Shown here: one piece after another, positions 35,974 to 54,100 of the stretch
How the letters are laid out: the number at the start of each line of letters is the position of its first letter
Numbering within the stretch: the first letter of the stretch is position 1
NCBI GenBank assembly: GCA_030583805.1
Contig: CP129476.1
Location: forward strand, 53,453 to 117,452
Length of the DNA stretch: 64,000 nt
DNA from: Patescibacteria group bacterium
Lineage (GTDB): Bacteria; Patescibacteriota; Patescibacteriia; SG8-24; DYFX01
Direction: 5' to 3'
Program-made: the position numbers and the translations under genes
The notes under the pieces: model-generated
Told to the model about the DNA's origin: nothing
The model's database searches: none
What the model saw: the letters and a program-made list of their open reading frames with translations, nothing else

Positions 35974-37275
35974 GTGTTGACCTACACTGTGGGCATGCTC
36001 AACGCGTTCAAGGGCGCCGCCACGCGCCTTCTTCTCTGGTCGCAAAAATATACGAAAACCGACATGCGGTACGTCGCGCATGGCGGCTTTTGGATGTCCT
36101 TGAACCTCGTCCTGTCGTCCGCCGTCTCCGTCGCGCTCGCAATCGTCTTTGCCAACCTCTTGCCGAAAGAGGTCTACGGTTACTACAAATACGTTTTGTC
36201 CGTCGGCAGTTTGTTCGGTTTCCTGACGTTCACCGGCATGAACGCTGCGGTTTCGCAGGCGGTCGCGCGCGGTCAGGACGGCGCGTTTCCGTACGCCGTC
36301 CGCATCCAGCTGAAGTGGAACCTGCTGCTCGCCGTCGTTTTATCAGGTGTCGGTATCTACTACCTCTTGAACGGCAGCCAGAAGCTCGGCATTCCACTCC
36401 TGTTCCTCGCCATTGGTTCGCCCTTGGCCGCGGCCTACACGACCTACGGCGCCTATCTCGGAGGCAAGAAAGACTTCAAGACGGCTTCGCAGTATTCGAC
36501 GGCGGCAGTCGTGTTGTACGCGCTCACCATGTGCGCTGCCGTGCTCATTACGAAAGACGTGCGATGGCTCGCCGCGACGTATGCGATCAGCTCGGCTGTG
36601 ATCGCCTTCCTCTTCCATCGTCTCACCGTACGCAAATATCAGCCGCAGGGTCTGGAAGAGGAGGAGCGCAAGAAGATGCTGACGCTCGGCAAGCACTTGT
36701 CGCTGACGAACGTCCTCGGTTCGCTGGCGCAGTACGTCGACAGCATCGTCGTCTTCAAATTCGGCGACGCGACGGAGCTGGCCATTTACGCTTTCGCCAA
36801 CGTGATTCCCGACCGGTTGCGCGGTTTCATGAAGCGCGCGCTCGGCATCGTGGCCCCGAAGATCGCGGACAAGACGCCGAGGGAGGCATACGTATCGCTC
36901 GGCCTTCGCATTGCGCAAGGACTTATCGTCGGCGCCGCGCTTGCCGCGGTCTACTGGCTGCTCTCGCCGTTCGTCTTCAAGTATATTTTTCCGCAGTACG
37001 TGGTCTCAACCTTCTACTCGCAGCTGATCGCGCTCGGGTTCCTTCTCGTCATTCCGGCAACGTACAGTTCGCAAGTGATGCAGGCTCAGCATTTGTACAC
37101 GCCGCTGTACGTCGGCACGACGATCGGAAACCTGTTCCGCATTTTCGCGATCATTGCCGGCGGTTTCTTCGGTGGCGTCATCGGCGTCATCGTCGCTCGC
37201 CTTGCGGCCAACGTGTTCGCGACCGCGCTGACGCTTCTGCTCATTCGTCGTGACTTGCGAAAACTCACTGCGTAA
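35974..37275 (+). CDS. Wzx-like polysaccharide flippase (MOP superfamily, polysaccharide biosynthesis protein)
   Basis: About 12-14 TM segments. PF01943-like organisation. Start is TTG 35974 or ATG 35992. Confidence 0.8.
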   Translation: MLTYTVGMLNAFKGAATRLLLWSQKYTKTDMRYVAHGGFWMSLNLVLSSAVSVALAIVFANLLPKEVYGYYKYVLSVGSLFGFLTFTGMNAAVSQAVARGQDGAFPYAVRIQLKWNLLLAVVLSGVGIYYLLNGSQKLGIPLLFLAIGSPLAAAYTTYGAYLGGKKDFKTASQYSTAAVVLYALTMCAAVLITKDVRWLAATYAISSAVIAFLFHRLTVRKYQPQGLEEEERKKMLTLGKHLSLTNVLGSLAQYVDSIVVFKFGDATELAIYAFANVIPDRLRGFMKRALGIVAPKIADKTPREAYVSLGLRIAQGLIVGAALAAVYWLLSPFVFKYIFPQYVVSTFYSQLIALGFLLVIPATYSSQVMQAQHLYTPLYVGTTIGNLFRIFAIIAGGFFGGVIGVIVARLAANVFATALTLLLIRRDLRKLTA

Positions 37276-37276
37276 T

Positions 37277-38251
37277 ATGGCTGCACCCGCGCATCTTGCC
37301 GCCGCTTTCGGCGAGCGCCTGAAGGAAAACGAACCGCTCGCGAAGCACGTCCACATCCGCATTGGCGGACCGGCGGATTTGTATCTTGAAGCGAAAAGTT
37401 CCGACGAGATCGTCCAGGCCGTCGAAGCCGCGATCGCCGAAGGACTCCCGTTCGCGATTTTTGGCGGAGGTTCGAACACATTGCCGAGCGACGACGGTTT
37501 TCGCGGTCTCGTCATCCAAGCGGCGAATCGGAATTGGAGCATTGACGGTACGCGCGTGATCGCCGAAGCGGGCGTGCCGTCAGGTTTCCTGGCGCGCAAA
37601 ACCGCCGAGGCCGGGCTCACCGGCCTTGAATGGGCCGTTTCGCTGCCCGGCACGATCGGCGGCGCCGTACGCGGCAATGCCGGCTGCTTCGGCGGGGAAA
37701 CCAAAGATGCTTTTGTTTCGGCGGAAACGCTGCTCGTGACCGACGGGCGCGCGTTTCGGGCGATCTGCACCAAGAACGAGTGCGGTTTCGGCTATCGCGA
37801 GTCTCGTTTTAAGCGTAGCCGGGACGTGATTCTCTCGGCGGAGTTTGCGCTCGCGGTCGCGCCGAAAGAGACGTGCTTGGCGAGGCTCGAAGAAGTGCTT
37901 TCAAAGCGCAAAGCCGATCAGCCGAGCGATGCGCCGTCGGCGGGCTGCATGTTCAAGAACTTCGACTTTAAGGATGAGGCCGTATTGGCCAAGTTGAAGG
38001 AGCGCGTCGAGGTTCCCGAGGCGTTTCTGCGCGCCAAACGCCTTCCGGCCGGCTGGCTGATCGAGCAGGCCGACATGAAAGGCAAAGCCATCGGAGCCGC
38101 CAAAGTGTCGGAAAAACACGGAAATTTCCTGCTGAATCTCGGAGGCGCGACAGCCTCGGACGTACTGCAGCTGATTTCGCTCATCAAGATGCGCATTCGC
38201 AACGAGTTCGGCATCCAGCTTGAAGAAGAGGTGCAGTTGCTCGGATTCTGA
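37277..38251 (+). CDS. murB: UDP-N-acetylenolpyruvoylglucosamine reductase
   Basis: FAD-binding domain (IRIGGPADLY, FGGGSNTL) and MurB C-terminal domain. Start at ATG 37277 (MAAPAHL). Confidence 0.9.
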   Translation: MAAPAHLAAAFGERLKENEPLAKHVHIRIGGPADLYLEAKSSDEIVQAVEAAIAEGLPFAIFGGGSNTLPSDDGFRGLVIQAANRNWSIDGTRVIAEAGVPSGFLARKTAEAGLTGLEWAVSLPGTIGGAVRGNAGCFGGETKDAFVSAETLLVTDGRAFRAICTKNECGFGYRESRFKRSRDVILSAEFALAVAPKETCLARLEEVLSKRKADQPSDAPSAGCMFKNFDFKDEAVLAKLKERVEVPEAFLRAKRLPAGWLIEQADMKGKAIGAAKVSEKHGNFLLNLGGATASDVLQLISLIKMRIRNEFGIQLEEEVQLLGF

Positions 38252-38274
38252 ACTTCCGTTACGCTGCCACCACT

Positions 38275-39285
38275 ATGCAGAAAACCGCCATTATCACCGG
38301 CATCCTCGGCCAGGACGGCCCCTATCTCGCCAAGCTGCTCTTGGAAAAAGACTATCGCGTTTTCGGACTCATGCAGCGCCACTCGGCTCCGAATTTCGAG
38401 AACACCGATTGGCTGGGCGTGACCGACAAGATCGAGTTCGTGACCGGCGACATGACGGATGAGGGTTCGCTTCTGCATCTCGTGCGCTCGATCCGTCCCG
38501 CCGAAGTCTACAACCTGGCGGCGCAGTCGTTCGTCGGCGCGTCGTGGGATCTCGCCCGCGTCACGACGGAGGTTAACAGCCTTGGCGTGCTGCATCTTTT
38601 GAACGCGCTCAAGTACCACCAGCCGACCGGAAAGTTTTACCAGGCGGCGACGAGCGAGATGTTCGGCAACAATCACGATAACGGCGTGCAAACGGAAACG
38701 ACGTCCTTCCGTCCGCGCAGCCCGTACGGCATCTCGAAAGTCTACGCCTACTGGATGACCGTCAACTTCCGCGAGAGCTTCGGCATGCATACGTCGAACG
38801 GTATCCTCTTCAATCACGAATCGCCGATCCGCGGAAAGGAATTCGTGACCCGCAAAATCAGCGATGCGGTCGCCAAGATCAAGCTCGGCCTTCAAGACAA
38901 GATCATGCTCGGCAACCTCGACGCCAAGCGCGACTGGGGTTTCGCCGGCGATTACGTCGAGGCGATGTGGATGATGCTCCAGCAGCCCGAAGGCGGCGAT
39001 TATCTCGTTGCGACGGGGGAGCCGCACTCGATCCGCGAATTCCTCGACCTCGCTTTCAAGCATGTCGGCATCGACGACTGGAGCGATCTGGTCGGCATCG
39101 ATCCGCGCTTCAAGCGCCCGGCGGAAATCCATGCTCTCAAAGGCTCGCCGCAGAAGGCTACCGAAACATTGGGTTGGAAGCCGAAGGTCTCCTTTGAAGA
39201 ACTCGTTGCCATGATGGTCGACGCCGATCTCGAACGACAGCGCGTCAAGGCTGAAACGCCGGCGTTCTCGGTCAAAGCCGTCTGA
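38275..39285 (+). CDS. gmd: GDP-mannose 4,6-dehydratase
   Basis: 336 aa. ITGILGQDGPYLAKLLLEKDY, SEMFG, YGISKVYAYW. Classic Gmd. Confidence 0.9.
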   Translation: MQKTAIITGILGQDGPYLAKLLLEKDYRVFGLMQRHSAPNFENTDWLGVTDKIEFVTGDMTDEGSLLHLVRSIRPAEVYNLAAQSFVGASWDLARVTTEVNSLGVLHLLNALKYHQPTGKFYQAATSEMFGNNHDNGVQTETTSFRPRSPYGISKVYAYWMTVNFRESFGMHTSNGILFNHESPIRGKEFVTRKISDAVAKIKLGLQDKIMLGNLDAKRDWGFAGDYVEAMWMMLQQPEGGDYLVATGEPHSIREFLDLAFKHVGIDDWSDLVGIDPRFKRPAEIHALKGSPQKATETLGWKPKVSFEELVAMMVDADLERQRVKAETPAFSVKAV

Positions 39286-39290
39286 CCCCG

Positions 39291-39331
39291 GAAAGAGGCC
39301 GCCCTTGCATGGGACGGCTCTTTCCTTTAAA
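39291..39331 (+). terminator. possible intrinsic terminator after gmd
   Basis: Imperfect ~10-bp stem GAAAGAGGCCG / CGGCTCTTTC followed by a CTTTCCTTTAAA T-rich run. Confidence 0.4.
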
Positions 39332-39359
39332 GTAGAGCCACTAAAATAGGCTGTTCTCT

Positions 39360-39671
39360 ATGACCATTGATCGCATCAAAGCCACGGGAATCGAGCTTAC
39401 CGACGCTATTCGGGACGCTGTCGAGAAGGACCTCGCCGCGCTCGCGCCGATCACGGCTCGCTTCGGCGACGGCACCTCGGTCGACGTTGAAGTCGGCAAG
39501 ACGACGAATCATCACCACAAGGGCGAGATTTTCCGCGCCGAGATGAACCTGCATATTCCCGGCAAGACGATCCGCGTCGAAGAAGTCGCCGAGGATCTCT
39601 ACGCCGCCATCAAAGAAGCGGCGCGCACGCTCAGCCGCGAAGTGGTCAAAGAAAAGGAACGCCACGACTGA
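39360..39671 (+). CDS. hpf: ribosome hibernation promoting factor / RaiA family (short HPF)
   Basis: 103 aa. [25 protein letters not shown]...[24 protein letters not shown]. Confidence 0.85.
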
Positions 39672-39676
39672 TTTTC

Positions 39677-42403
<2,727 letters not shown>

Positions 42404-42493
42404 CTTGTCGCAAGCTCCAAGACGCCTTCGTTCGTACTATGACGTGGTCGTCGAGGCATAGTGGTATGCTAAGAAAGATCGCGTACCCTCCCT

Positions 42494-43282
42494 ATGCCTA
42501 AAGCCGTTGTTGTTATTCCCGCCCGGATGGCCTCAACCCGCTATCCCGGCAAACCCAAAGCGCTCATCGCCGGCGTGCCGATGATTGAGCGCGTTTGGCG
42601 TATCGCGAAAGCGGTGCCCTCGGCCGACCGCGTGATCATCGCCACCGATGACGAGGGCTTGAAGTCGTTTTGCGAAGGGTTCGGCGCCGAAGTGGCGATG
42701 ACGAGTCCGGACTGCCTGACTGGCACCGACCGCGTGGCCGAAGTCGCCGCCAAGCTTCCGGAATACGACATCGTGTTCAATTTGCAGGGCGACGCCGTGC
42801 TGACACCTCCGCATGTCATCGAGGCGCTTCTCAAAACAATGAAGGAAGAACCGGAGGCGCCGATGGCGACGCCGATCGTCCATCTGAAGGACGAAGCGCT
42901 TGAATCGTTTTTGGAAAAAAAGCGCACGGGCAGCACGACCGGCACGACCGTCGTCTTCGACCTCAAGGGATACGCGATGTATTTTTCGAAGCTCGTGATC
43001 CCGAACGTCCGCGACAAGAAGGATTTCGACGGCGAACCGCCGATCTACCGCCACATCGGTCTCTACGCGTACCGGCCGGACGTGCTCGCCACGTTCGCTT
43101 CGCTGCCGGAAGGCCGTTTCGAGCGCGCCGAGCGGCTGGAGTACCTGCGACTGCTTGAAAACGGCATTCGCATCCGCTGCGTCGAAGTCGACATGCAAGG
43201 CCGCACGATGGCGTCCGTCGATAATTTTGAGGATATTGCCGTGGTCGAAGACCTGATTGCGAAAGAAGGCGAGCTGCTATGA
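42494..43282 (+). CDS. kdsB: 3-deoxy-manno-octulosonate cytidylyltransferase (CMP-Kdo synthetase)
   Basis: 262 aa. IPARMASTRYPGKP, TGTDRVAEV, GYAMYFSK, RHIGLYAYR. Close motif match to E. coli KdsB. Confidence 0.85.
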   Translation: MPKAVVVIPARMASTRYPGKPKALIAGVPMIERVWRIAKAVPSADRVIIATDDEGLKSFCEGFGAEVAMTSPDCLTGTDRVAEVAAKLPEYDIVFNLQGDAVLTPPHVIEALLKTMKEEPEAPMATPIVHLKDEALESFLEKKRTGSTTGTTVVFDLKGYAMYFSKLVIPNVRDKKDFDGEPPIYRHIGLYAYRPDVLATFASLPEGRFERAERLEYLRLLENGIRIRCVEVDMQGRTMASVDNFEDIAVVEDLIAKEGELL

Positions 43283-43923
43283 AGCTCGTCGTCGCTCGGC
43301 ACGGAACAACGTTCAAGCCCGACGAGGAAAGCCGATACCAAGGCCAGCGTCTCGATTTGCCGCTCAGCGCGCTCGGCCGCGCGCAAGCGAAGCGCCTCGT
43401 CTTTTCGCTTCGCCGTCACGGCATCAAGCCGGATCGGGTCGTGAGCGGCCCGCATCTGCGCCAGCGCGAGACGGCCGAGATCATCGCCGCCGCGTACAAG
43501 CTCCCGACGCCGTCGGTCGAGCCCCTTTTTTCTGAAATCGATTACGGGCCGTGGGAGGGTTTGTCCGGCAAGGACGCGGCCGCGCGCTGGCCGGAAGCGA
43601 CGCGGGGATGGAAAAAGAAAGGCGTCTGGCCCGGCCTGTTTGGCGGCTCCTTCGAGGCGCATGTCGAGGCCTTGCGCGCATGGATCGCCCGGCTGCCGGA
43701 AGAGGGTACGACGCTGGCCGTGAGCAGCCAAGGCCTCATGCGCGCCATGTATGCCGCAGTTGATCCGGACGCGTGGAAAAGCGCCTGCCAGGCGGGTCGC
43801 GCAACCGTTGCGAATCTCAAGACCGGCGCTTGGGGCGAAATCGGCGGCACGCCCGCACGCCCGCGTCTCCTTAGGTGGCAGCGCGAGCCGTCGTGGATCG
43901 ACTGGTTGCCGTTTTTCTTTTGA
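43279..43923 (+). CDS. histidine phosphatase superfamily (phosphoglycerate-mutase-like) protein
   Basis: 214 aa. N-terminal RHG motif (MKLVVARHGTT). ATGA overlap with the kdsB stop. Confidence 0.7.
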   Translation: MKLVVARHGTTFKPDEESRYQGQRLDLPLSALGRAQAKRLVFSLRRHGIKPDRVVSGPHLRQRETAEIIAAAYKLPTPSVEPLFSEIDYGPWEGLSGKDAAARWPEATRGWKKKGVWPGLFGGSFEAHVEALRAWIARLPEEGTTLAVSSQGLMRAMYAAVDPDAWKSACQAGRATVANLKTGAWGEIGGTPARPRLLRWQREPSWIDWLPFFF

Positions 43924-43938
43924 ATCTAGGAATGGACT

Positions 43939-45378
43939 ATGGACACGACGTCTGTCGCCCTTGAGCAGCTGCGCGCGTTCAACCGCATGGTCTCCGAGAC
44001 ACCTGAACTTCGATCCAGGCTTGTCGAAGGTTCGTACGACGTTTTGCAGCAGCAGCAAGCGCGGTTATTTGCCGCTTTGCGCGGCCGGCTGAAAAAGTCA
44101 GGTACGGACGGCGAGGGTTCGCAAGGCGGCAGAATGCGCGCGTATGCCGACGCCGCCGCGGCGCTGCTGCTCACGGCCTGGTCCGCCGCGTCGCGTCGCG
44201 CGGATATCGTGGTGTTCGCGGTCGACATGATCAGTGCGGACGGTGACCACGATTTTCGGCTCGACGGCTTGTACCGCGCATTGCGCGCCAGGAACCTGCG
44301 CACGGTCGAAGTGCTTCATACGCTGATCGGCAGCACGACGCTCGCGCACGCCAGAAGCCGCAAGCGCGCGGCGGCCTATCATGAAGCGTTCGAGATCCTG
44401 GCGCGGCTCTGGTTCCGCTTTTGCCGATGCCGCCCGAAACTGCGCGCGCTCGCCGCGGCGCTGCCGTGCGAGGCGTTTCCTGAAGGGGAGCGCCCTTTCA
44501 TCCGCAAGCTCGCGTTGCAATCCATGGAAGCGGCGCTGTATGCGCCGTTCAAGGTGCGGCTATATCGCTGGCTGTTGCGCCGGCTCAAGCCCTGTGCGGT
44601 ACTCGGGATCGACGACACGCGCTACTACCACGATTTGGTGGCCGCCGCACGCGACCTTGGTATCCCGTTCCACGCATTCCAGCACGGGCTGTATACCGTG
44701 TCTCATGTCGGCTGGCTCGACGACGGGTACGGCTCCAACGCGAAAAAGATTCGACCGGACACGCTCGTCGTATGGAGCGAGTACTGGAAGCGCGAACTAC
44801 TGCGGTTGGGAACCTATTTTTCGGAGAACGATCTGCTGATCGGCGGAAGTCCCAAGCGCGAGAAAGACATCAATCCGCCTCCGCCGTCCCCGTCGGGTGG
44901 CTTTGGCGTGCTCGTGCCGTACGAGACAGGCGCCCCGAAACATGAAGTCAGCGTCTTTCTGAAAGCGTTTTTAGACGACCCGGCCATCACTGTCTTTTTC
45001 AAAGCGCGCCCCGACATGACGCACGAAGCGCAGCTGAAAGAGTACGGGCTGGAAACGTCGCCTCGTCTTGTCATCGTCGAGAAGGACGTCGAGAGCCGCT
45101 TGCCGGACATCCACGCCGTCGTCGGCGTCTGCTCTACGTATTTGTATGATGCGCTCGCATTCCGCCGCCCGGTCGTCATCATCGAAACGAGCCGTACGAG
45201 CGGCATGGCCATGGTACACAACGGTCTCGCCGGCTTCTTGCCGAAGGGCTCCGATGCCGCAGCCCTGAAAAGCCTCGCGGCATCGTCGCAGTCCAAGGCG
45301 GAAGAGCGCGCCCGCGCCTATCTTGGCGGAGGCGTTTCGCTCGATCAAACCTTGGACGCGCTCCTCGCCGGCTCTTGA
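43939..45378 (+). CDS. putative GT-B fold glycosyl/glycerophospho-transferase (KpsS/KpsC- or TagF-like C-terminal domain)
   Basis: 479 aa. C-terminal VVGVCSTYLYDALAFRRPVVIIE resembles the CDP-glycerol glycerophosphotransferase / capsule Kdo-transferase C-motif. Weak assignment. Confidence 0.4.
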   Translation: MDTTSVALEQLRAFNRMVSETPELRSRLVEGSYDVLQQQQARLFAALRGRLKKSGTDGEGSQGGRMRAYADAAAALLLTAWSAASRRADIVVFAVDMISADGDHDFRLDGLYRALRARNLRTVEVLHTLIGSTTLAHARSRKRAAAYHEAFEILARLWFRFCRCRPKLRALAAALPCEAFPEGERPFIRKLALQSMEAALYAPFKVRLYRWLLRRLKPCAVLGIDDTRYYHDLVAAARDLGIPFHAFQHGLYTVSHVGWLDDGYGSNAKKIRPDTLVVWSEYWKRELLRLGTYFSENDLLIGGSPKREKDINPPPPSPSGGFGVLVPYETGAPKHEVSVFLKAFLDDPAITVFFKARPDMTHEAQLKEYGLETSPRLVIVEKDVESRLPDIHAVVGVCSTYLYDALAFRRPVVIIETSRTSGMAMVHNGLAGFLPKGSDAAALKSLAASSQSKAEERARAYLGGGVSLDQTLDALLAGS

Positions 45379-45442
45379 GCTCTTGTACCATCGGTCGAAG
45401 AGCGTTAGGGTTGCGCCGTCCACGGTTTGAAAGAAGGAGCGC

Positions 45443-46054
45443 ATGAATCCCAAGCAGGAAACGATTGCCGCCTACGAGGCGTTTCCCAAAGACTTCGACG
45501 TCGAGTTTGAGCGGCACATGCGTCTCTACAACATGGGGCATGTCGAGCGTTTCCTGTGCTGCGTTCGCGGGGCGAGTATCCTCGACCTCGGAGCCGGCCC
45601 GGGCAACTACGCCGCCGAGTTTGCCGATCGCGGATTCGATGTCCTTTGCGGAGACCTTTCGCCCAGGATGGTCGAGTACTGCCGCCGCAAAGGCCTTGCC
45701 GCCGAGGTGCTCGATATCGAGACGTTCGATCTTCAGCGTCGCTTCAACGGCATCTGGGCAAACGCGGTTCTGCTGCATCTCCCTAAGACGGCTCTCCCAT
45801 CGGTCTTTGAACGCATCGCTCAACACCTGGTTCCCGGCGGCGTGTTCGCATGTTCCGTCAAAGAGGGGGAGGGCGAGGGGTTGAAAGACGATCCGGACTA
45901 CCCCGGCACGCGGCGCTTCTTCAGCTACTACGCTGAAGAAGAGTTCCGAACGCTGCTCATGCCGCGTTTCGCGATCACAGCGTTCGAACGGACGCCGTCG
46001 CGTTCCGGTCAGACGGTTTTCATCAAGTATCTGACGCACCTGCGGCCGACATGA
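45443..46054 (+). CDS. class I SAM-dependent methyltransferase
   Basis: 203 aa. Motif I ILDLGAGPGNYA and acidic post-I residue (CGDLS). Confidence 0.75.
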   Translation: MNPKQETIAAYEAFPKDFDVEFERHMRLYNMGHVERFLCCVRGASILDLGAGPGNYAAEFADRGFDVLCGDLSPRMVEYCRRKGLAAEVLDIETFDLQRRFNGIWANAVLLHLPKTALPSVFERIAQHLVPGGVFACSVKEGEGEGLKDDPDYPGTRRFFSYYAEEEFRTLLMPRFAITAFERTPSRSGQTVFIKYLTHLRPT

Positions 46055-47863: not shown

Positions 47864-49933
47864 ATGACTACTCGTCGCGGCCGATCGTTTTTTTATTACG
47901 TGTCCGTTCCGTTCGTCTGGCTCGGTAAAGCGCTGAGCCGGATCGTGAAACCGACGTCCCGCGGCAAAGTACGCTGGGCTGTTTTGACTGTCTTGATTCT
48001 GGCCGGACTCTCCGGCTTCTTGGCGTATCCGCAGGCCTGGGATCGCGGCGCCGACGCTTGGAATACCAAGGTTGTCGACGGCATGAATCTGCCTGGCGGT
48101 TTCAAGATCCCGCATTTCGCCAACGTTCCGTACCGCCTCGGCCTTGATCTTCAAGGCGGCACGCACCTCGTCTACGAAGCGGATACTTCCGATATCGTTC
48201 CGAGCGAGCGCGACGCGGCAATGGAAGGCGTGCGCGACGTCATCGAGCGCCGCGTCAACGCGTTCGGCGTTGCCGAGCCGATCATCCAAACCAACAAGGC
48301 GGACGATCGCTGGCGTATTATCGTTGAGCTCGCGGGCGTTCGCGATGTCAGCGAGGCTATCCGCATGATCGGTGAAACGCCTATTCTTGAATTCAAAGAG
48401 GAAAACCCCGTTTCGGAAATTCCGCTCACGCCTGAGCAACAGAAGGAGCTCGAGACGCGCAACGCCGACCTGAAGAAACAGGCAAACGACACGTTGCGGT
48501 CGGCGCTCATCAACCCGAACGACGAAAAACTTGCCTGGGAAAACCTCGGTTCCGTCGGCGAAAGCCAGTACCCGGAACTTTGGAAGTGGGCCGATACGCA
48601 CCGTGGCGCCAAGCTTGCCGGGACGCTGGTTGAGGATCCGGAATACTGGAACGTGCTGCGCGTGAATGCCCGCGACGATGCCGAAAAGGAAATCAAGGCG
48701 AGCCATATTCTGATTTGCTGGGAAGATGCCCAGGGTTGCGGAGAGCCGCTCACGAAGGAGCAGGCTTTGGAGCAGATCACCGCGCTGCGCGGCGAAGTCA
48801 CGGCGCAGAACTTTGCGGAGAAAGCCAAGGCGAATTCAACGGACGGTTCCGTCAGCGTAAATGACGGCGATCTTGGCTGGTTCGGCGAAGGAATGATGGT
48901 CAAGGAATTCCAGGACGCCGCCTTCGCGCTCAAGAACGGGGAGATTTCTCAGCCTGTCGAATCTCCGTTCGGCTACCACCTGATCTACAAAACGGGGGAG
49001 CGCCCGCTCGTGCGCTACGATCTCGACCGCATTGCGTTCAAAAAAGTGACCGCTGCCGACGTCGCGCCGCAGGCCGATCCGTGGAAGAACACGGGCTTGT
49101 CCGGCAAGCATGTGCAGCGCGCGCAGGTTGAATTCGATCAGACGGTCAACCGCCCGCAGGTGCTTCTTACGTTCAACGAAGAAGGTAAAACGCTTTTTGC
49201 CGAACTCACCAAGCGCAGCGTCGGAAAACTGATCGCGATCTATCTCGACGGCCAGGCGATCTCCATTCCGCGCGTGCAGCAAGAAATCGCGGACGGCAAT
49301 GCCGTCATCAGCGGCGACTTTGATGTGAAGGAAGCGAAGCTCTTGTCGCAGCGTCTCAATGCCGGCGCATTGCCGGTACCGATCACGCTGCTCTCCCAGC
49401 AGACGATCGGCGCATCGCTCGGCCAAGACTCGTTGGCAAAGAGCCTGAACGCCGGCTTGATCGGCTTCCTGATCGTCGTTGTCTTCATGACCTTGTACTA
49501 CCGCCTCCCGGGCTTGATTGCCTCGTTGGCGCTGCTCATGTACACCGGTTTCGTGCTCGCGATCTTCAAGCTCTTGGGCATCACGCTGACCCTCTCGGGC
49601 GTTGCGGGCGTCATCTTGTCGATCGGCATGGCCGTGGACGCCAACATCCTGATCTTCGAGCGCATGAAGGAAGAGTTGAAGAATGCCCGCCCGCTTGATT
49701 CGGCGATCGCGGAAGGCTTCAAGCGCGCCTGGACCTCGATCTACGACTCGAATATCTCCTCGCTTATCACCTGCGCCATCTTGTACACCTTCACGTCGAG
49801 TTCGGTGCGTGGCTTCGCGGTGACCTTGGCGATCGGTATCGTCGTCTCGATGTTCTCTGCCATTACGGTGACGCGCACGCTGCTCCGCTTGGTCGCGCCG
49901 TGGACTAGTAACTCTCGCTGGCTCTTCAAGTAA
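47864..49933 (+). CDS. secD: protein translocase subunit SecD with an inserted parvulin-type PPIase domain in the periplasmic P1 region
   Basis: 689 aa. SecD motifs (GLDLQGGTHLVYEAD, GETPILEFKEE, C-terminal 6-TM bundle). Between them sits a PpiC rotamase signature (KASHILI...GDLGWFGEGMMVKEFQDAAFALKNGEISQPVESPFGYHLIY). Confidence 0.9.
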   Translation: MTTRRGRSFFYYVSVPFVWLGKALSRIVKPTSRGKVRWAVLTVLILAGLSGFLAYPQAWDRGADAWNTKVVDGMNLPGGFKIPHFANVPYRLGLDLQGGTHLVYEADTSDIVPSERDAAMEGVRDVIERRVNAFGVAEPIIQTNKADDRWRIIVELAGVRDVSEAIRMIGETPILEFKEENPVSEIPLTPEQQKELETRNADLKKQANDTLRSALINPNDEKLAWENLGSVGESQYPELWKWADTHRGAKLAGTLVEDPEYWNVLRVNARDDAEKEIKASHILICWEDAQGCGEPLTKEQALEQITALRGEVTAQNFAEKAKANSTDGSVSVNDGDLGWFGEGMMVKEFQDAAFALKNGEISQPVESPFGYHLIYKTGERPLVRYDLDRIAFKKVTAADVAPQADPWKNTGLSGKHVQRAQVEFDQTVNRPQVLLTFNEEGKTLFAELTKRSVGKLIAIYLDGQAISIPRVQQEIADGNAVISGDFDVKEAKLLSQRLNAGALPVPITLLSQQTIGASLGQDSLAKSLNAGLIGFLIVVVFMTLYYRLPGLIASLALLMYTGFVLAIFKLLGITLTLSGVAGVILSIGMAVDANILIFERMKEELKNARPLDSAIAEGFKRAWTSIYDSNISSLITCAILYTFTSSSVRGFAVTLAIGIVVSMFSAITVTRTLLRLVAPWTSNSRWLFK

Positions 49934-49934
49934 T

Positions 49935-50846
49935 ATGCTGCGCATCACGCATCACCGCCGAACCTACTACCTCCTTTCCGGACTGCTGACCGGCCTCGCT
50001 TTGGTCGCGTGGTTGTCGTGGGGTCTCAAGCCGGGAATCGATTTTACCGGAGGATCCCTCATGGAAATCGAGTTCTCGCAGGGCCGTCCCGAGGTCACGC
50101 AGATTGTTGAGGTTGCCCGCGCATCCGTCGCCAGCGAGGAGTTGACGGTTCAGCCGCTCGGAGAACGCGGCATGGTCCTGAGGATGCCGCCTCTCGCGGA
50201 AACGGATCATCAAAAACTGCTTCTGGGCCTGAAAGAGAGCTTTGAGAAGGATGGCGCCGTTCTGGATGAAAAGCGATTTGAATCGATCGGTCCCTTGATC
50301 GGCGAAGAGCTTCGCAAGAAGACGATCTACGCCGTCTTCGGCGCGATCTTGGCAATCGTCCTCTACATCACCTACGCCTTCCGCAAGGTCTCGCACCCGG
50401 TTTCGTCGTGGAAATACGGCGCTTGCACCGTCGTCGCTCTGGCGCACGACGTGATCATTCCTGTTGGCGTCTTCTCGGCGCTCGGACACTTCTACGGCAT
50501 CGAAGTCGGCGCCTGGGTCGTAACCGCGCTGCTCACGGTTCTGGGTTTCTCGGTGCACGATACGATCGTCGTATTCGACCGCATTCGCGAAAACCTGGCG
50601 CACGCGCGTCGCGAGAGCTTCGAAGAGATCATCAACCGCAGCTTGAACGAGACGCTCGGCCGCTCGATCAACACGTCGCTCACCGTGCTGTTCGTGCTCT
50701 TCTCCACGTATTTCCTGGGCGGCGAATCGATCAGGAACTTCATCCTGTCCATGACGATCGGCGTCTCTGTCGGCGTCTACTCCTCGATCTTCTTGGCTAG
50801 CCCGCTTCTGGTCAGCTGGCATCTCCGTGATTCCAAAAAAGGCTAA
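49935..50846 (+). CDS. secF: protein translocase subunit SecF
   Basis: 303 aa. SecF motifs (IDFTGGS, 6 TM). Starts 1 nt after the secD stop. Confidence 0.9.
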   Translation: MLRITHHRRTYYLLSGLLTGLALVAWLSWGLKPGIDFTGGSLMEIEFSQGRPEVTQIVEVARASVASEELTVQPLGERGMVLRMPPLAETDHQKLLLGLKESFEKDGAVLDEKRFESIGPLIGEELRKKTIYAVFGAILAIVLYITYAFRKVSHPVSSWKYGACTVVALAHDVIIPVGVFSALGHFYGIEVGAWVVTALLTVLGFSVHDTIVVFDRIRENLAHARRESFEEIINRSLNETLGRSINTSLTVLFVLFSTYFLGGESIRNFILSMTIGVSVGVYSSIFLASPLLVSWHLRDSKKG

Positions 50847-50891: not shown

Positions 50892-50928
50892 CGCTTCCGT
50901 TGACTACGGAAGCGTTGCTTTTTTCTCC
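50892..50928 (+). terminator. intrinsic terminator after secDF
   Basis: Hairpin CGCTTCCGT-TGACT-ACGGAAGCG (9-bp stem) followed by TTGCTTTTTTCTCC. It overlaps the first 12 codons of the track ORF at 50900, so that ORF's true start is downstream. Confidence 0.65.
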
Positions 50929-50932
50929 GTCC

Positions 50933-52252
50933 ATGCCCCAGATCGTCCTGGACCTGTCGCCACTGTACGCGTTGATGGATCAATCGCCGCTCCAGATCGC
51001 CTGGACATTTTTCGTGTACGGCGGCTGGATCCCGTTTGTTTGGATCCTGTGGCACGGTTTTTCGGAAATTTGGCTGGCGTCGCGTCAGAACAAGTACGCG
51101 GAGACGATCAACTACGTCTTGTTGAGCGTCAATATCCCGAGGATGAACGAGCAGACGCCGAAAGCGGCCGAGCATATTTTCTCGCACCTTGCCGGCACGT
51201 TCTCCTCGCCGAACTTCAAGGAAAAATGGCTTCAGGGAAAATTTACTCCGCCTTTTTCATTCGAGTACGCCTCGATAGACGGGTACACGCAGTTTATCGT
51301 GCGTGCGCCGATCCAATTCCGCGATTTGGTCGAGGCGTCGATCTTTTCGCAGTATCCCGACGCTGAAATCACGGAGATCGCCGATTACACTAAAAACGTT
51401 CCGCTCAAGCATCCGGACCCGGAATGGGATTGCTGGGGTACGGAATTCACGTTGGCAAAGCCGTCCGCGATCCCGCTGCGTACCTACACCGAGTTCGAGC
51501 ACACGCTTTCGCAGGAACTGAAAGACCCGCTCTCGACCCTGCTCGAAACGCTTTCGCGTTTGCGGAAAGGGGAGCAGGTTTGGATCCAGATCATCGTGTA
51601 CCCGCGCGATCAGAACTGGATCCAGGAATCGGTCAAAGTCGCCAACAAGATGAAGGGCCGCGAGGTGAAGAAGAAACCGCCGGCATGGCAAGGGCTTGTC
51701 GAGGAGGGTTTCAGTCTCATGACGGTTGGCGTGAGCCAGGTCGTCGGCGTTGGCGCGAAGGAAGCGGAAAAGAAAAAGGAGGAAAGCCGCGTGCCCAACC
51801 TGTCGCCTGGCGAAAAGCGTTTGTTGGAAGGCGTCGAGAATAAAATGTCGAAGTTCGGTTTTGGCGTGAAGATTCGCTTCGTCTATGTCGGCAAGCGCTC
51901 CGTTTTCCGGAAGGGTCCCATGATTTCGATGGTGCGCGGCGCTTTCGGCCTGTTCGGTTCCCTCGACGGCAACAGCCTCAAGGGCTACGGCAAGGCGGCT
52001 CCGAAAACGGATTACTTCTGGCAGCGCTGGAGCACGGAGGAAAAGAAGACGAAAATTATCACGCGGTTTTCGAACCGTTCTTCAGCAGGCGCCGACCGTT
52101 TCATCTTGAATGTGGAAGAGCTGGCGAGTTTGTGGCACTTCCCGCAAATTTTGGTGAAGGCTCCGCTGCTGAAGAAGGTTGACTCGCGCAAAGTCGAGCC
52201 GCCGTTCTCGTTGCCCGAAACGCCCGACGCCGCGCTGCCGACCCAAGAGTGA
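50933..52252 (+). CDS. hypothetical membrane protein (2 N-terminal TM helices + large soluble domain), upstream partner of T4CP-like ATPase
   Basis: Start placed at ATG 50933 (MPQIVLDLS...), just after the terminator. TM helices around IAWTFFVYGGWIPFVWILW. No domain match for the rest. Confidence 0.55.
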   Translation: MPQIVLDLSPLYALMDQSPLQIAWTFFVYGGWIPFVWILWHGFSEIWLASRQNKYAETINYVLLSVNIPRMNEQTPKAAEHIFSHLAGTFSSPNFKEKWLQGKFTPPFSFEYASIDGYTQFIVRAPIQFRDLVEASIFSQYPDAEITEIADYTKNVPLKHPDPEWDCWGTEFTLAKPSAIPLRTYTEFEHTLSQELKDPLSTLLETLSRLRKGEQVWIQIIVYPRDQNWIQESVKVANKMKGREVKKKPPAWQGLVEEGFSLMTVGVSQVVGVGAKEAEKKKEESRVPNLSPGEKRLLEGVENKMSKFGFGVKIRFVYVGKRSVFRKGPMISMVRGAFGLFGSLDGNSLKGYGKAAPKTDYFWQRWSTEEKKTKIITRFSNRSSAGADRFILNVEELASLWHFPQILVKAPLLKKVDSRKVEPPFSLPETPDAALPTQE

Positions 52253-52258
52253 CGCTTT

Positions 52259-54100
52259 ATGGCATTTTCCGCTGCGCCCTACAACCACGATCACGAAAAC
52301 GAAGTCATTCCGTTTGCGGAGACGAATTTTCGCGGTGAGAATCGGAAGTTCGGCATCAAGACCGACGATCGCCGCCGCCACGTGTACGTGATCGGTAAGA
52401 CGGGCATGGGCAAGACGACCCTGCTCGAAAACTTCGTCATGTCCGATATTTACGCCGGGCACGGTTTGGCGTACGTCGATCCGCACGGCGATACGGCCGA
52501 TAAGATTCTCGACTTCATTCCGCCCTGGCGCATTAATGACGTCGTCTATTTCAATCCGGCCGACATGGAGTTCCCGGTCGGGTTCAATATTCTTGAAATC
52601 GCCAACGAAAACCAAAAACACCTCGTGGCCTCCGGGCTCATGGGCGTCTTCAAGAAAATCTGGCCGGACGTCTGGTCGGCGCGTATGGAGTACATCCTGC
52701 TCAACTGCGTGCTGGCGCTGCTCGACACCCCCGGCTCGACGCTGTTGGGCATCAGCCGCATTTTGGCCGACAAGGATTTCCGCAAGAAGATCGTCGAGAA
52801 CGTGAAGGATCCGGTCGTAAAAGGCTTTTGGGTGAACGAATTCGCGAAGTATACGGACAAGTTCGCGTCCGAAGCGATCGCGCCGGTCCAGAACAAGGTC
52901 GGTCAATTCTTGTCGAACACGGTCATCCGCAACATCGTGGCCCAGACGAAGTCGACGATCAACATCCGGCAGATCATGGATGAGCGCAAGATCCTGATCG
53001 TGAACTTGTCGAAGGGTTTGGTCGGTGAAGACTCGAGCAAGCTTTTGGGCGGCATGCTGATCACGCGCTTGCAGCTCGCCGCCATGGAGCGCGTCGATAT
53101 GCTCGAAAAAGACCGTCAGGACTTTTATCTGTACGTCGACGAGTTCCAGAACTTCGCCACGGAATCGTTTGCCAATATCCTGTCCGAAGCGCGTAAATAC
53201 CGCCTGGCGCTGATCACGGCGCATCAATATATCGAGCAGCTTGAAGAAGAAGTGGCAGCCGCCGTCTTCGGCAACGTCGGCACGATTATTTCCTTCCGCG
53301 TCGGCGCGAACGATGCCGAGCATCTGGCGAAAGAATTCGCGCCCGTGTTCGTTGAGGAGGATATTATCAACCTCGCGAAATACGAAGTGTATCTCAAGCT
53401 CATGATCGACGGCGTGGCCTCTTCGCCGTTCTCGGCGAAAACGCTTTCGCCGATCGCGAAACGCACCGAGAGCCGCGAGAAAGTCATTACGTCCTCTCGC
53501 GAGCGGTACGCGCTGACACGCAACGACATCGAAACGAAAGTGAATACCTGGGCCGGCTTCGATGAAGCGACGGGTACGTTCGTCGGCAAGCCGGCGGCCG
53601 CGGGAGGTCCGTCATCGCCATTCAGCGAAGCGCCGCGCGAAAATTCCGATCGCCAATACAAGGCGAACTGCTCGCGTTGCGACAAGGAGCTGCATTTGAA
53701 ATTCCCGCCAGACCCGAGCCGGCCGTTCTATTGCAAGGAATGCTTGCCCTTCGCGCGAGCCGAAGCGGCTTCTGCGCCGAAACCGTCGGCCAGACCTGCT
53801 TCGAGCGCCGCTCCGCGACCGCCTGCACCGAGGCCGTCGCAAGCGTCCACCACCCACGCGCCGCTACCCGGAGCCCCTCGCACCGCGACCCCGAAACCGG
53901 ATGCCAAGCCCGCCCCGAAGCTTGCCGATAAACCCCTGCCTCCACCTCCGAAGCCCGGTATGTTTGCCGGTAAAATCCGGGTCGTTACCGACACGCAAGA
54001 GCCGGAAGTGTCGACTCCTGCGAAATCAGTCCCTTCCCCGACGGCGCCGAAGCCCGCGCCGCCGCGCTTGCCGCCCCTGAGCTTAAAACCGAAGGCCTGA
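52259..54100 (+). CDS. VirD4/TraG/TraD-like (type IV coupling protein family) P-loop NTPase lacking N-terminal TM anchor; C-terminal zinc ribbon + Pro/Ala-rich tail
   Basis: 613 aa. Walker A VIGKTGMGKTT and Walker B/DEF box FYLYVDEFQNF. C-terminus CSRCDKELHL...YCKECLPF followed by PKPSARPASSAAPRPPAPRP...PPPPKPG. Confidence 0.65.
   Translation: MAFSAAPYNHDHENEVIPFAETNFRGENRKFGIKTDDRRRHVYVIGKTGMGKTTLLENFVMSDIYAGHGLAYVDPHGDTADKILDFIPPWRINDVVYFNPADMEFPVGFNILEIANENQKHLVASGLMGVFKKIWPDVWSARMEYILLNCVLALLDTPGSTLLGISRILADKDFRKKIVENVKDPVVKGFWVNEFAKYTDKFASEAIAPVQNKVGQFLSNTVIRNIVAQTKSTINIRQIMDERKILIVNLSKGLVGEDSSKLLGGMLITRLQLAAMERVDMLEKDRQDFYLYVDEFQNFATESFANILSEARKYRLALITAHQYIEQLEEEVAAAVFGNVGTIISFRVGANDAEHLAKEFAPVFVEEDIINLAKYEVYLKLMIDGVASSPFSAKTLSPIAKRTESREKVITSSRERYALTRNDIETKVNTWAGFDEATGTFVGKPAAAGGPSSPFSEAPRENSDRQYKANCSRCDKELHLKFPPDPSRPFYCKECLPFARAEAASAPKPSARPASSAAPRPPAPRPSQASTTHAPLPGAPRTATPKPDAKPAPKLADKPLPPPPKPGMFAGKIRVVTDTQEPEVSTPAKSVPSPTAPKPAPPRLPPLSLKPKA

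Follow-up and report, generated by a model that had tools for sequence, protein, structure and literature searches.

Parvulin-type modules between the base and the head of the P1 domain in SecD proteins of Patescibacteria

The window analyzed here, a stretch of 64,000 nucleotides (nt) from a Patescibacteria group bacterium (NCBI GenBank assembly GCA_030583805.1, contig CP129476.1, positions 53,453 to 117,452 of the forward strand; nucleotide positions below count from its first letter), contains a secD gene whose product has two parvulin-type modules inserted in frame between the base and the head of its P1 domain. One module is a canonical parvulin with a conserved catalytic residue set, and the other is a degenerate relative. 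On balance, we consider it probable that the protein is a working SecD of the proton-driven SecDF motor and carries on P1 a twin-parvulin unit that folds exported chains. Parvulin-bearing SecD is common in Patescibacteria (candidate phyla radiation [CPR]), whose SecD proteins have 0, 1, 2, or about 3 to 4 modules at one site. Neither a SecD-parvulin fusion nor a circularly permuted parvulin was found described in the literature searched, in which subscription journals were poorly covered, and an earlier mention is possible. The databases hold these proteins under the label “SecD” only, so that their peptidyl-prolyl isomerase (PPIase) is overlooked when CPR genomes are used to reconstruct metabolism and proteostasis.

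The gene is a single uninterrupted open reading frame (ORF), and its coordinates, length, and motifs had been given correctly in a preliminary description of the DNA. Its product is a SecD with an intact core and an adjoining SecF: the NCBIfam equivalog-domain model for SecD (TIGR01129) scores 390 bits versus a cutoff of 244, its match being divided into two stretches by the insert, and all three Pfam SecD domains likewise exceed their cutoffs, with Sec_GG at amino acids 91 to 109 and SecD_1st at amino acids 120 to 181 in the P1 base. When aligned to SecDF of Thermus thermophilus (3AQP), residues 90 to 179 correspond to T. thermophilus residues 33 to 117 and residues 412 to 678 to residues 160 to 426; the base-to-head junction comprises 232 residues, versus 42 in the T. 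thermophilus protein. The complete PpiC/parvulin that the preliminary description had seen in frame between P1 base and P1 head is borne out by Pfam, TIGR01129, and this alignment. Residue D592 is aligned to the proton-relay Asp of T. thermophilus (D340, in transmembrane helix 4 [TM4]) and is invariant in an alignment of 99 homologues (51 to 92% identity), which was also used for conservation in the insert and for showing its two modules. The position of TM1 places everything from TM1 to TM2, including the insert, on the extracytoplasmic side, and secF starts 1 nt past the secD stop codon. Canonical SecD and SecDF (T. thermophilus 3AQP, 5XAN, and 5YHF; Escherichia coli SecD) are the best sequence and fold match, and SecDF structures are the top structural matches of the whole-protein model. 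TM1, P1 base, P1 head, TM2 to TM6, the proton-relay Asp, and the adjoining SecF are shared with them; the difference lies in ∼190 extra residues, forming the two parvulin-type modules, at the base-to-head junction. No PPIase domain is present in the solved SecD and SecDF structures.

An artifact joining a separate parvulin gene to secD (a frameshift, as considered in the preliminary description, a chimeric assembly, or a miscalled ORF) can be regarded as excluded. The ORF is free of stops, SecD sequence lies on both sides of the insert, and the architecture is collinear in hundreds of independent assemblies (NCBI, JGI, ENA, and Logan). The 120 best matches from a database of 5.8 billion proteins (51 to 92% identity, 659 to 718 amino acids, mostly 95 to 100% coverage) have the same Pfam set and the same collinear architecture in every case (120/120), again from independent assemblies. 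Named members among them are called “protein translocase subunit SecD” and come from Patescibacteria or Parcubacteria metagenome-assembled genomes (MAGs); the closest named relative, at 92% identity, is WKZ29203.1 (Patescibacteria; P0271).

Module 2 is the canonical parvulin. Pfam finds Rotamase_3 at amino acids 266 to 375 (82.2 bits; cutoff, 22.5; E value, 5e-23) and Rotamase at amino acids 281 to 376 (73.5 bits; cutoff, 21.7), scores 3 to 4 times the cutoff and far from the subthreshold result that would have spoken against a parvulin. Residues H281, D/E327, L337, M345, F349, S/T367, and H372 are 97 to 100% conserved in the 99 homologues, and by motif alignment we equate them with the His/Cys(Asp)/Thr/His catalytic set and the proline-pocket residues of Pin1, Par10, and PrsA. 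The Asp and the FGYH motif mark module 2 as belonging to the non-phospho-specific PrsA/Par10/SurA-P2 type. Family hidden Markov models (HMMs), catalytic and pocket residues, and the predicted β-α3-β-α-β2 fold all place it in the parvulin family and predict a catalytically competent prolyl isomerase; catalysis itself we infer from these features. In module 2, the β1-α1 loop is extended (HILICWxGAxxC) and contains a pair of cysteines, Cys285 and Cys292 (window positions 48716 to 48739), that is kept in 97/99 two-module homologues and absent in single-module relatives (ASHILIKTK). This pair may form an extracytoplasmic disulfide stapling the loop beside the active site.

An AlphaFold2 (AF2) model of the insert only (amino acids 182 to 411; alignment of 28 sequences) reached a predicted local distance difference test score (pLDDT) of 94 and a predicted template modeling score (pTM) of 0.76. 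In the full-length model, the mean pLDDT was 83.5, with values of >90 in the insert, and module 1 was also modeled at a pLDDT of >90. Foldseek comparison of the predicted module 2 with the PDB returned the PPIase domains of Pin1, Ess1, PrsA, and SurA-P2 over 111 to 114 aligned columns, with root mean square deviations (rmsd) of 2.2 to 2.4 Å and TM scores of ∼0.8 normalized to the target. Two-domain SurA and PEB4/Cbf2 were aligned over ∼200 to 240 columns but with an rmsd of 9 to 13 Å.

TABLE 1 Features of the secD locus in the 64,000-nt window
Feature	Positions	Strand	Amino acids	Evidence
secD, including insert	47864..49933	+	689 in total	One unbroken ORF
SecD TM1	47957..48025	+	∼32-54	Helix 32-54 in AF2 model; topology via homology to 3AQP
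P1 base, N-terminal part, ending GETPILEFKEE	48116..48406	+	85-181	Sec_GG and SecD_1st; aligns with T. thermophilus SecDF 33-117
Short linker and module 1, degenerate parvulin-like	48407..48679	+	182-272	Family-profile hhalign; relative P0058
Module 2, canonical parvulin PPIase domain	48680..48997	+	273-378	Pfam; conservation in 99 homologues; Foldseek
Returning strand and flexible linker to head	48998..49087	+	∼381-393 (strand), 394-408 (linker)	DSSP; single-module relatives
P1-head subdomain	49088..49378	+	409-505	SecDF_P1_head, 96.9 bits, profile positions 18-114; aligns with T. thermophilus SecDF from 160
SecD TM2-TM6, including proton-relay Asp D592	49388..49891	+	509-676	Pfam SecD_SecF_C
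secF, partner subunit	49935..50846	+	303 in total	TIGR00966, 271 bits (cutoff, 160); Pfam SecD_SecF_C, 196 bits
secA, 5.5 kb upstream of secD	39677..42403	+		SecA_DEAD, 421 bits, and other SecA domains

The preliminary description was right that one complete parvulin is inserted, but the insert comprises ∼230 amino acids, twice the length of one parvulin, and contains a second, degenerate module upstream. Module 1 (amino acids ∼187 to 272) has a long α1 helix and is without both catalytic His residues and without an N-terminal β1 strand of its own. Most relatives show the signature ADFxxLAKEYSxDxxxxxGGDLGF…G.V…ET..G.NI.K; in the clade of the protein studied here, module 1 is shorter by a further 12 to 20 residues, and the α2/α3 region is partly deleted. 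Comparison of its family profile with module 2 by hhalign gave a probability of 98.8% (E value, 5e-17), with the match spanning only module 2 columns 27 to 103, that is, all but β1. Module 1 of the relative P0058 alone scored 60.8 bits with Rotamase_3, above the Pfam threshold, and the module 1 of our protein had no Pfam match in native or permuted order; its parvulin ancestry is visible only because the family profile and the relatives show it. Module 2 is followed by a returning strand (VRYDLDRIAFKK), whose position is occupied in single-module relatives by the His-bearing β1 (xASHILxK). DSSP assignments of the models contain two unusually long continuous strands, at residues 261 to 284 and 370 to 393. 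The first could be β4 of module 1 running into β1 of module 2, and the second β4 of module 2 running into the returning strand; a two-stranded ribbon would then pass through both modules, and VRYDLDRIAFKK would supply the missing β1 of module 1. Module 1 is probably a degenerate permuted parvulin that has lost catalysis and provides a scaffold or a substrate-binding surface.

The single-module relatives show how such an insert is built. Their elements run α1…GGDLG…FG[YFW]HII, a loop, and (K)EVxASHIL[FI]K, with the His-bearing β1 after β4. A second search, seeded with the single-module protein P0146, yielded 68 further single-module SecDs; both His motifs were present in 58/68, and the order was β4 then β1 in all 58 (58/58) and canonical in 0. 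Moving the trailing strand to the front raised the Rotamase_3 score from 99.2 to 105.5 bits for P0146 and from 101.6 to 111.0 bits for P0130 and widened the coverage of the Rotamase profile from positions 8 to 97 to positions 1 to 97 and from positions 10 to 96 to positions 1 to 96, respectively. The order of the strands and the gains upon re-permutation indicate that the basic unit here is a circularly permuted parvulin, and the best description of the insert of our protein is accordingly an active, canonical parvulin that separates β4 from β1 of a dead, degenerate one of the permuted kind, in which it is nested; a strand-swapped tandem of two permuted units amounts to the same thing. Three-module proteins such as P0158 look, by eye, like one more level of nesting.

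A full HMMER scan of 1.84 billion cluster representatives returned 4561 matches at E values of ≤1e-30. The 150 representatives most similar to our protein were classed with segment HMMs from the alignment of 99 homologues; 141 of them were full length, and the resulting counts describe this sample and are not a census. No insert (base-head gap, ≤75 amino acids) was found in 66/141 representatives, one module (gap, 120 to 200) in 16/141, two modules (gap, 230 to 300; some in SecDF fusions of ∼1000 to 1100 amino acids) in 34/141, about three modules (gap, 340 to 420) in 14/141, and about four modules (gap, 475) in 1/141. The preliminary description had called the architecture unusual, which holds relative to model organisms but not within Patescibacteria/CPR, where it is common and has variants with 1 to 4 modules. 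The remaining 10/141 representatives (P0145, P0151, P0157, P0218, P0220, P0228, P0236, P0248, P0257, and P0261) have inserts of 89 to 192 amino acids without a parvulin HMM match; those of P0218 and P0157 resemble eroded parvulins, and that of P0220 is an acidic low-complexity stretch. The base-head site appears to be a general insertion hot spot.

An insert that merely decorates such a site might have nothing to do with folding and act as a structural or regulatory appendage, for example by serving as a spacer, by touching the cell wall, the S-layer, YidC, or SecYEG, or by slowing the P1 head in its swing. The base-head junction does govern head movement (PMC5974789), and its acceptance of 1 to ∼4 modules as well as of the 10 nonparvulin inserts resembles variable decoration. 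A spacer role, however, leaves the repeated retention of an intact catalytic parvulin at the site unexplained, and the Pfam scan found no cell-wall-binding or other interaction domains. We regard this explanation as improbable, and less likely than either a foldase or a chaperone role.

Four known systems bear on the role of the insert. PrsA, the lipoprotein foldase of Firmicutes, is likewise extracytoplasmic and membrane tethered and has a parvulin of the PrsA/Par10 type, in which Asp replaces the Pin1 Cys; module 2 is 36 to 43% identical to PrsA PPIase domains, and the parvulin of PrsA is itself an inserted domain. Unlike PrsA, our protein lacks both a lipobox and the PrsA N/C chaperone domain; its flanks are SecD P1, and SecD is the tether. 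The NCBIfam PrsA models gave 54 to 67 bits versus cutoffs of 343 to 361 (NF002827, 66.6 bits versus 343; NF002846, 66.4 bits versus 361) and matched the parvulin part only. PpiD, the inner membrane chaperone of Gram-negative bacteria that acts with YfgM, is a membrane-anchored parvulin-domain factor at the Sec translocon; in E. coli and Vibrio, it touches the SecD periplasmic domain and works together with SecDF (PMC9643414). The SecD-parvulin fusion is the “Rosetta stone” counterpart of this interaction. PpiD itself stands alone as a protein: it is anchored by a TM segment of its own, has SurA-N-like chaperone domains, and contains a parvulin that is catalytically inactive, whereas module 2 keeps the catalytic residues, and Pfam found no SurA_N-type chaperone domain in our protein of the kind expected for a PpiD or a SurA. 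In the periplasmic chaperone SurA, too, an inactive parvulin is paired in tandem with an active one (Foldseek alignment to 1M5Y over up to 238 columns); SurA is soluble and has its domains joined flexibly about an N/C chaperone core, the rmsd over both domains is 10 to 13 Å, and the NCBIfam SurA model NF008038 scores 49.9 versus a cutoff of 394. In contrast to those of SurA, the two modules modeled here appear nested, with long strands common to both. Finally, Mpn444 of Mycoplasma pneumoniae is an extracellular PPIase/chaperone of a minimal-genome, wall-less/monoderm bacterium and is found at SecD by cross-links (bioRxiv 10.1101/2024.09.05.611430); it differs as a separate trimeric lipoprotein of other overall architecture, associated with SecD noncovalently. 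Judged by these family matches, the protein is classed as a SecD with a parvulin family member in module 2 and not as a PrsA, a PpiD, or a SurA; it probably works like a PrsA or a PpiD fused to its partner.

The PpiD-SecD and Mpn444-SecD contacts provide a precedent for cooperation between a PPIase and SecD. The P1 head of SecDF is a swinging element with an amphiphilic cavity that binds the precursor as it emerges; the head moves between the Super-F/F and I forms, with proton flow as the driver (PMC5974789, PMC6028853). The insert is most likely a translocon-tethered, PrsA/PpiD-like foldase or chaperone, and the foldase on the extracytoplasmic arm proposed in the preliminary description is the most reasonable reading of a parvulin domain that lies in frame and scores above the HMM thresholds. 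Two linkers of ∼10 to 13 residues would hold a rigid twin-parvulin unit of ∼230 amino acids at the base-head junction. The P1 head would catch the unfolded chain as it leaves SecYEG and pull, and as the head pulls and releases, the chain would next reach the tethered unit, which would bind it and speed Xaa-Pro isomerization. Module 1, with the returning strand behind module 2 to complete it, would act as a scaffold or substrate-binding surface. We propose that, with the chain bound and isomerized by the tethered unit, folding would start at the translocon exit. Such a fusion would amount to the PpiD-SecDF and PrsA partnerships in covalent form, in a monoderm-like CPR cell with a small genome.

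Several observations weigh against a folding motor of this kind. The pTM of the full-length AF2 model is 0.46, so that it is uncertain where the insert lies with respect to the head cavity and SecYEG. When the trailing strand was put before the module 1 profile, hhalign against module 2 showed no gain (91.3 swapped versus 90.3 native and 89.5 control), which leaves the β1-swap pairing unsupported by sequence and based on the DSSP strings; a swap-type Pfam test on P0058 added just 3 bits. The PPIase activity of PrsA, SurA, and PpiD is dispensable in vivo, and by analogy a chaperone function may dominate over isomerization here as well. The catalytic His pair is missing in 16/65 insert-bearing representatives, including the single-module proteins P0139 and P0142, which means that catalysis is not needed in every lineage; some lineages have dead modules only.

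The last of these points also speaks for the main rival explanation, in which the modules are mainly a noncatalytic extension of the P1 head for chaperoning or substrate capture (a holdase or ratchet), comparable to the inactive parvulin domain of PpiD or SurA P1, with isomerase activity incidental or dispensable. Module 1 fits this explanation, since it is kept at high model confidence despite being catalytically dead, and so does PpiD, whose parvulin domain has been questioned in its importance, yet which stimulates translocation with SecDF (PMC9643414). However, the full catalytic set of module 2 is 97 to 100% conserved down to 51% identity, more strongly than a purely structural role predicts, and the His pair is retained in 49/65 insert-bearing representatives. 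We consider the noncatalytic explanation unlikely and continue to favor an enzymatically active foldase unit. A more far-reaching, combined claim can be put forward only tentatively, and we doubt that it will hold in all its parts: that this is the first described translocation motor with a built-in foldase; that a permuted parvulin sits at the P1 hinge and has been nested or strand swapped to 1 to ∼4 modules; that its active site, on an arm driven by the proton motive force, couples pulling to isomerization or chaperoning; and that it replaces stand-alone PrsA or PpiD in these reduced genomes. The preliminary description had likewise suggested that a separate PpiD or PrsA is lacking; when all six-frame ORFs of the 64-kb window were searched by phmmer with module 2, no parvulin other than that of SecD came up.

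The design is common yet apparently undescribed and joins two partners that are separate proteins in model bacteria. As a gene fusion, it is independent, evolution-derived evidence that parvulin foldases/chaperones and SecDF share substrate and place, a partnership hitherto inferred from cross-links only (PpiD-SecD and Mpn444-SecD). It is also a compact object, made of one polypeptide, in which to study structurally how chains pass from the P1 head to a folding factor, and it bears on the folding of secreted and surface proteins, which is central to the epibiotic lifestyle, in ultra-small CPR cells with a minimal gene set. Circular permutation and domain nesting are cleanly exemplified in nature by the series of permuted and nested parvulins, with 0, 1, 2, and ∼3 to 4 modules at one site. 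For specialists in Sec or chaperones, the fusion should be noteworthy and experimentally useful, its proposed function being a natural extension of known partnerships.

Among the matches listed, two-module loci occur in Magasanikbacteria, Uhrbacteria, Parcubacteria, Peribacteria, and “Patescibacteria group” MAGs, with one further two-module form in Falkowbacteria; single-module forms occur in Kuenenbacteria, Buchananbacteria, and Parcubacteria, and an Azambacteria SecD cluster is without an insert. Parvulin-bearing SecD is joined to SecF in single chains of ∼1000 to 1100 amino acids in Peribacteria and Magasanikbacteria MAGs (L022, L023, L062, L002, P0134, P0143, and similar), so that the insert is present in both split and fused motors. 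CPR-type SecD also lies on contigs labeled uncultured Gammaproteobacteria, Baltobacteraceae, Eisenbacteria, or Binatia (L001, L003, L005, L006, L008, L009, L015, L016, P0030, P0045, and P0064), which are probably misbinned or mislabeled MAG contigs and not true occurrences outside CPR.

The gene order murB … secA … secD-secF-DUF8128-TrwB/VirD4-like ATPase is found in the window and in the relatives L081 and L082. The DUF8128-type protein and the TrwB/VirD4-like coupling ATPase, which has a treble-clef zinc finger, lie downstream of secF (window positions 50900 to 54100, + strand; L081, 13069 to 16269; L082, 9940 to 12993) and thus adjoin secDF in two different lineages; the DUF8128-type protein of the window has no Pfam match. 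The pair may be part of a Patescibacteria type IV secretion or competence machinery. On the 5′ side of secD (window positions 37250 to 46054) are murB, a GDP-mannose-4,6-dehydratase-like gene, secA, a CTP_transf_3 cytidylyltransferase, a His_Phos_1 phosphatase, a 479-amino-acid ORF without a Pfam match, and a methyltransferase. In L081, the relative with 92% identity, there are additional SIS/CBS and DAHP_synth_1 (KdsD/KdsA-like) genes, which the window does not have between its upstream genes; they hint at a CMP-sugar (Kdo-like) pathway. No tRNA, transfer-messenger RNA, or Rfam family was found at threshold in the 64-kb window. Its GC content is ∼57 to 65% throughout, which is high for CPR.

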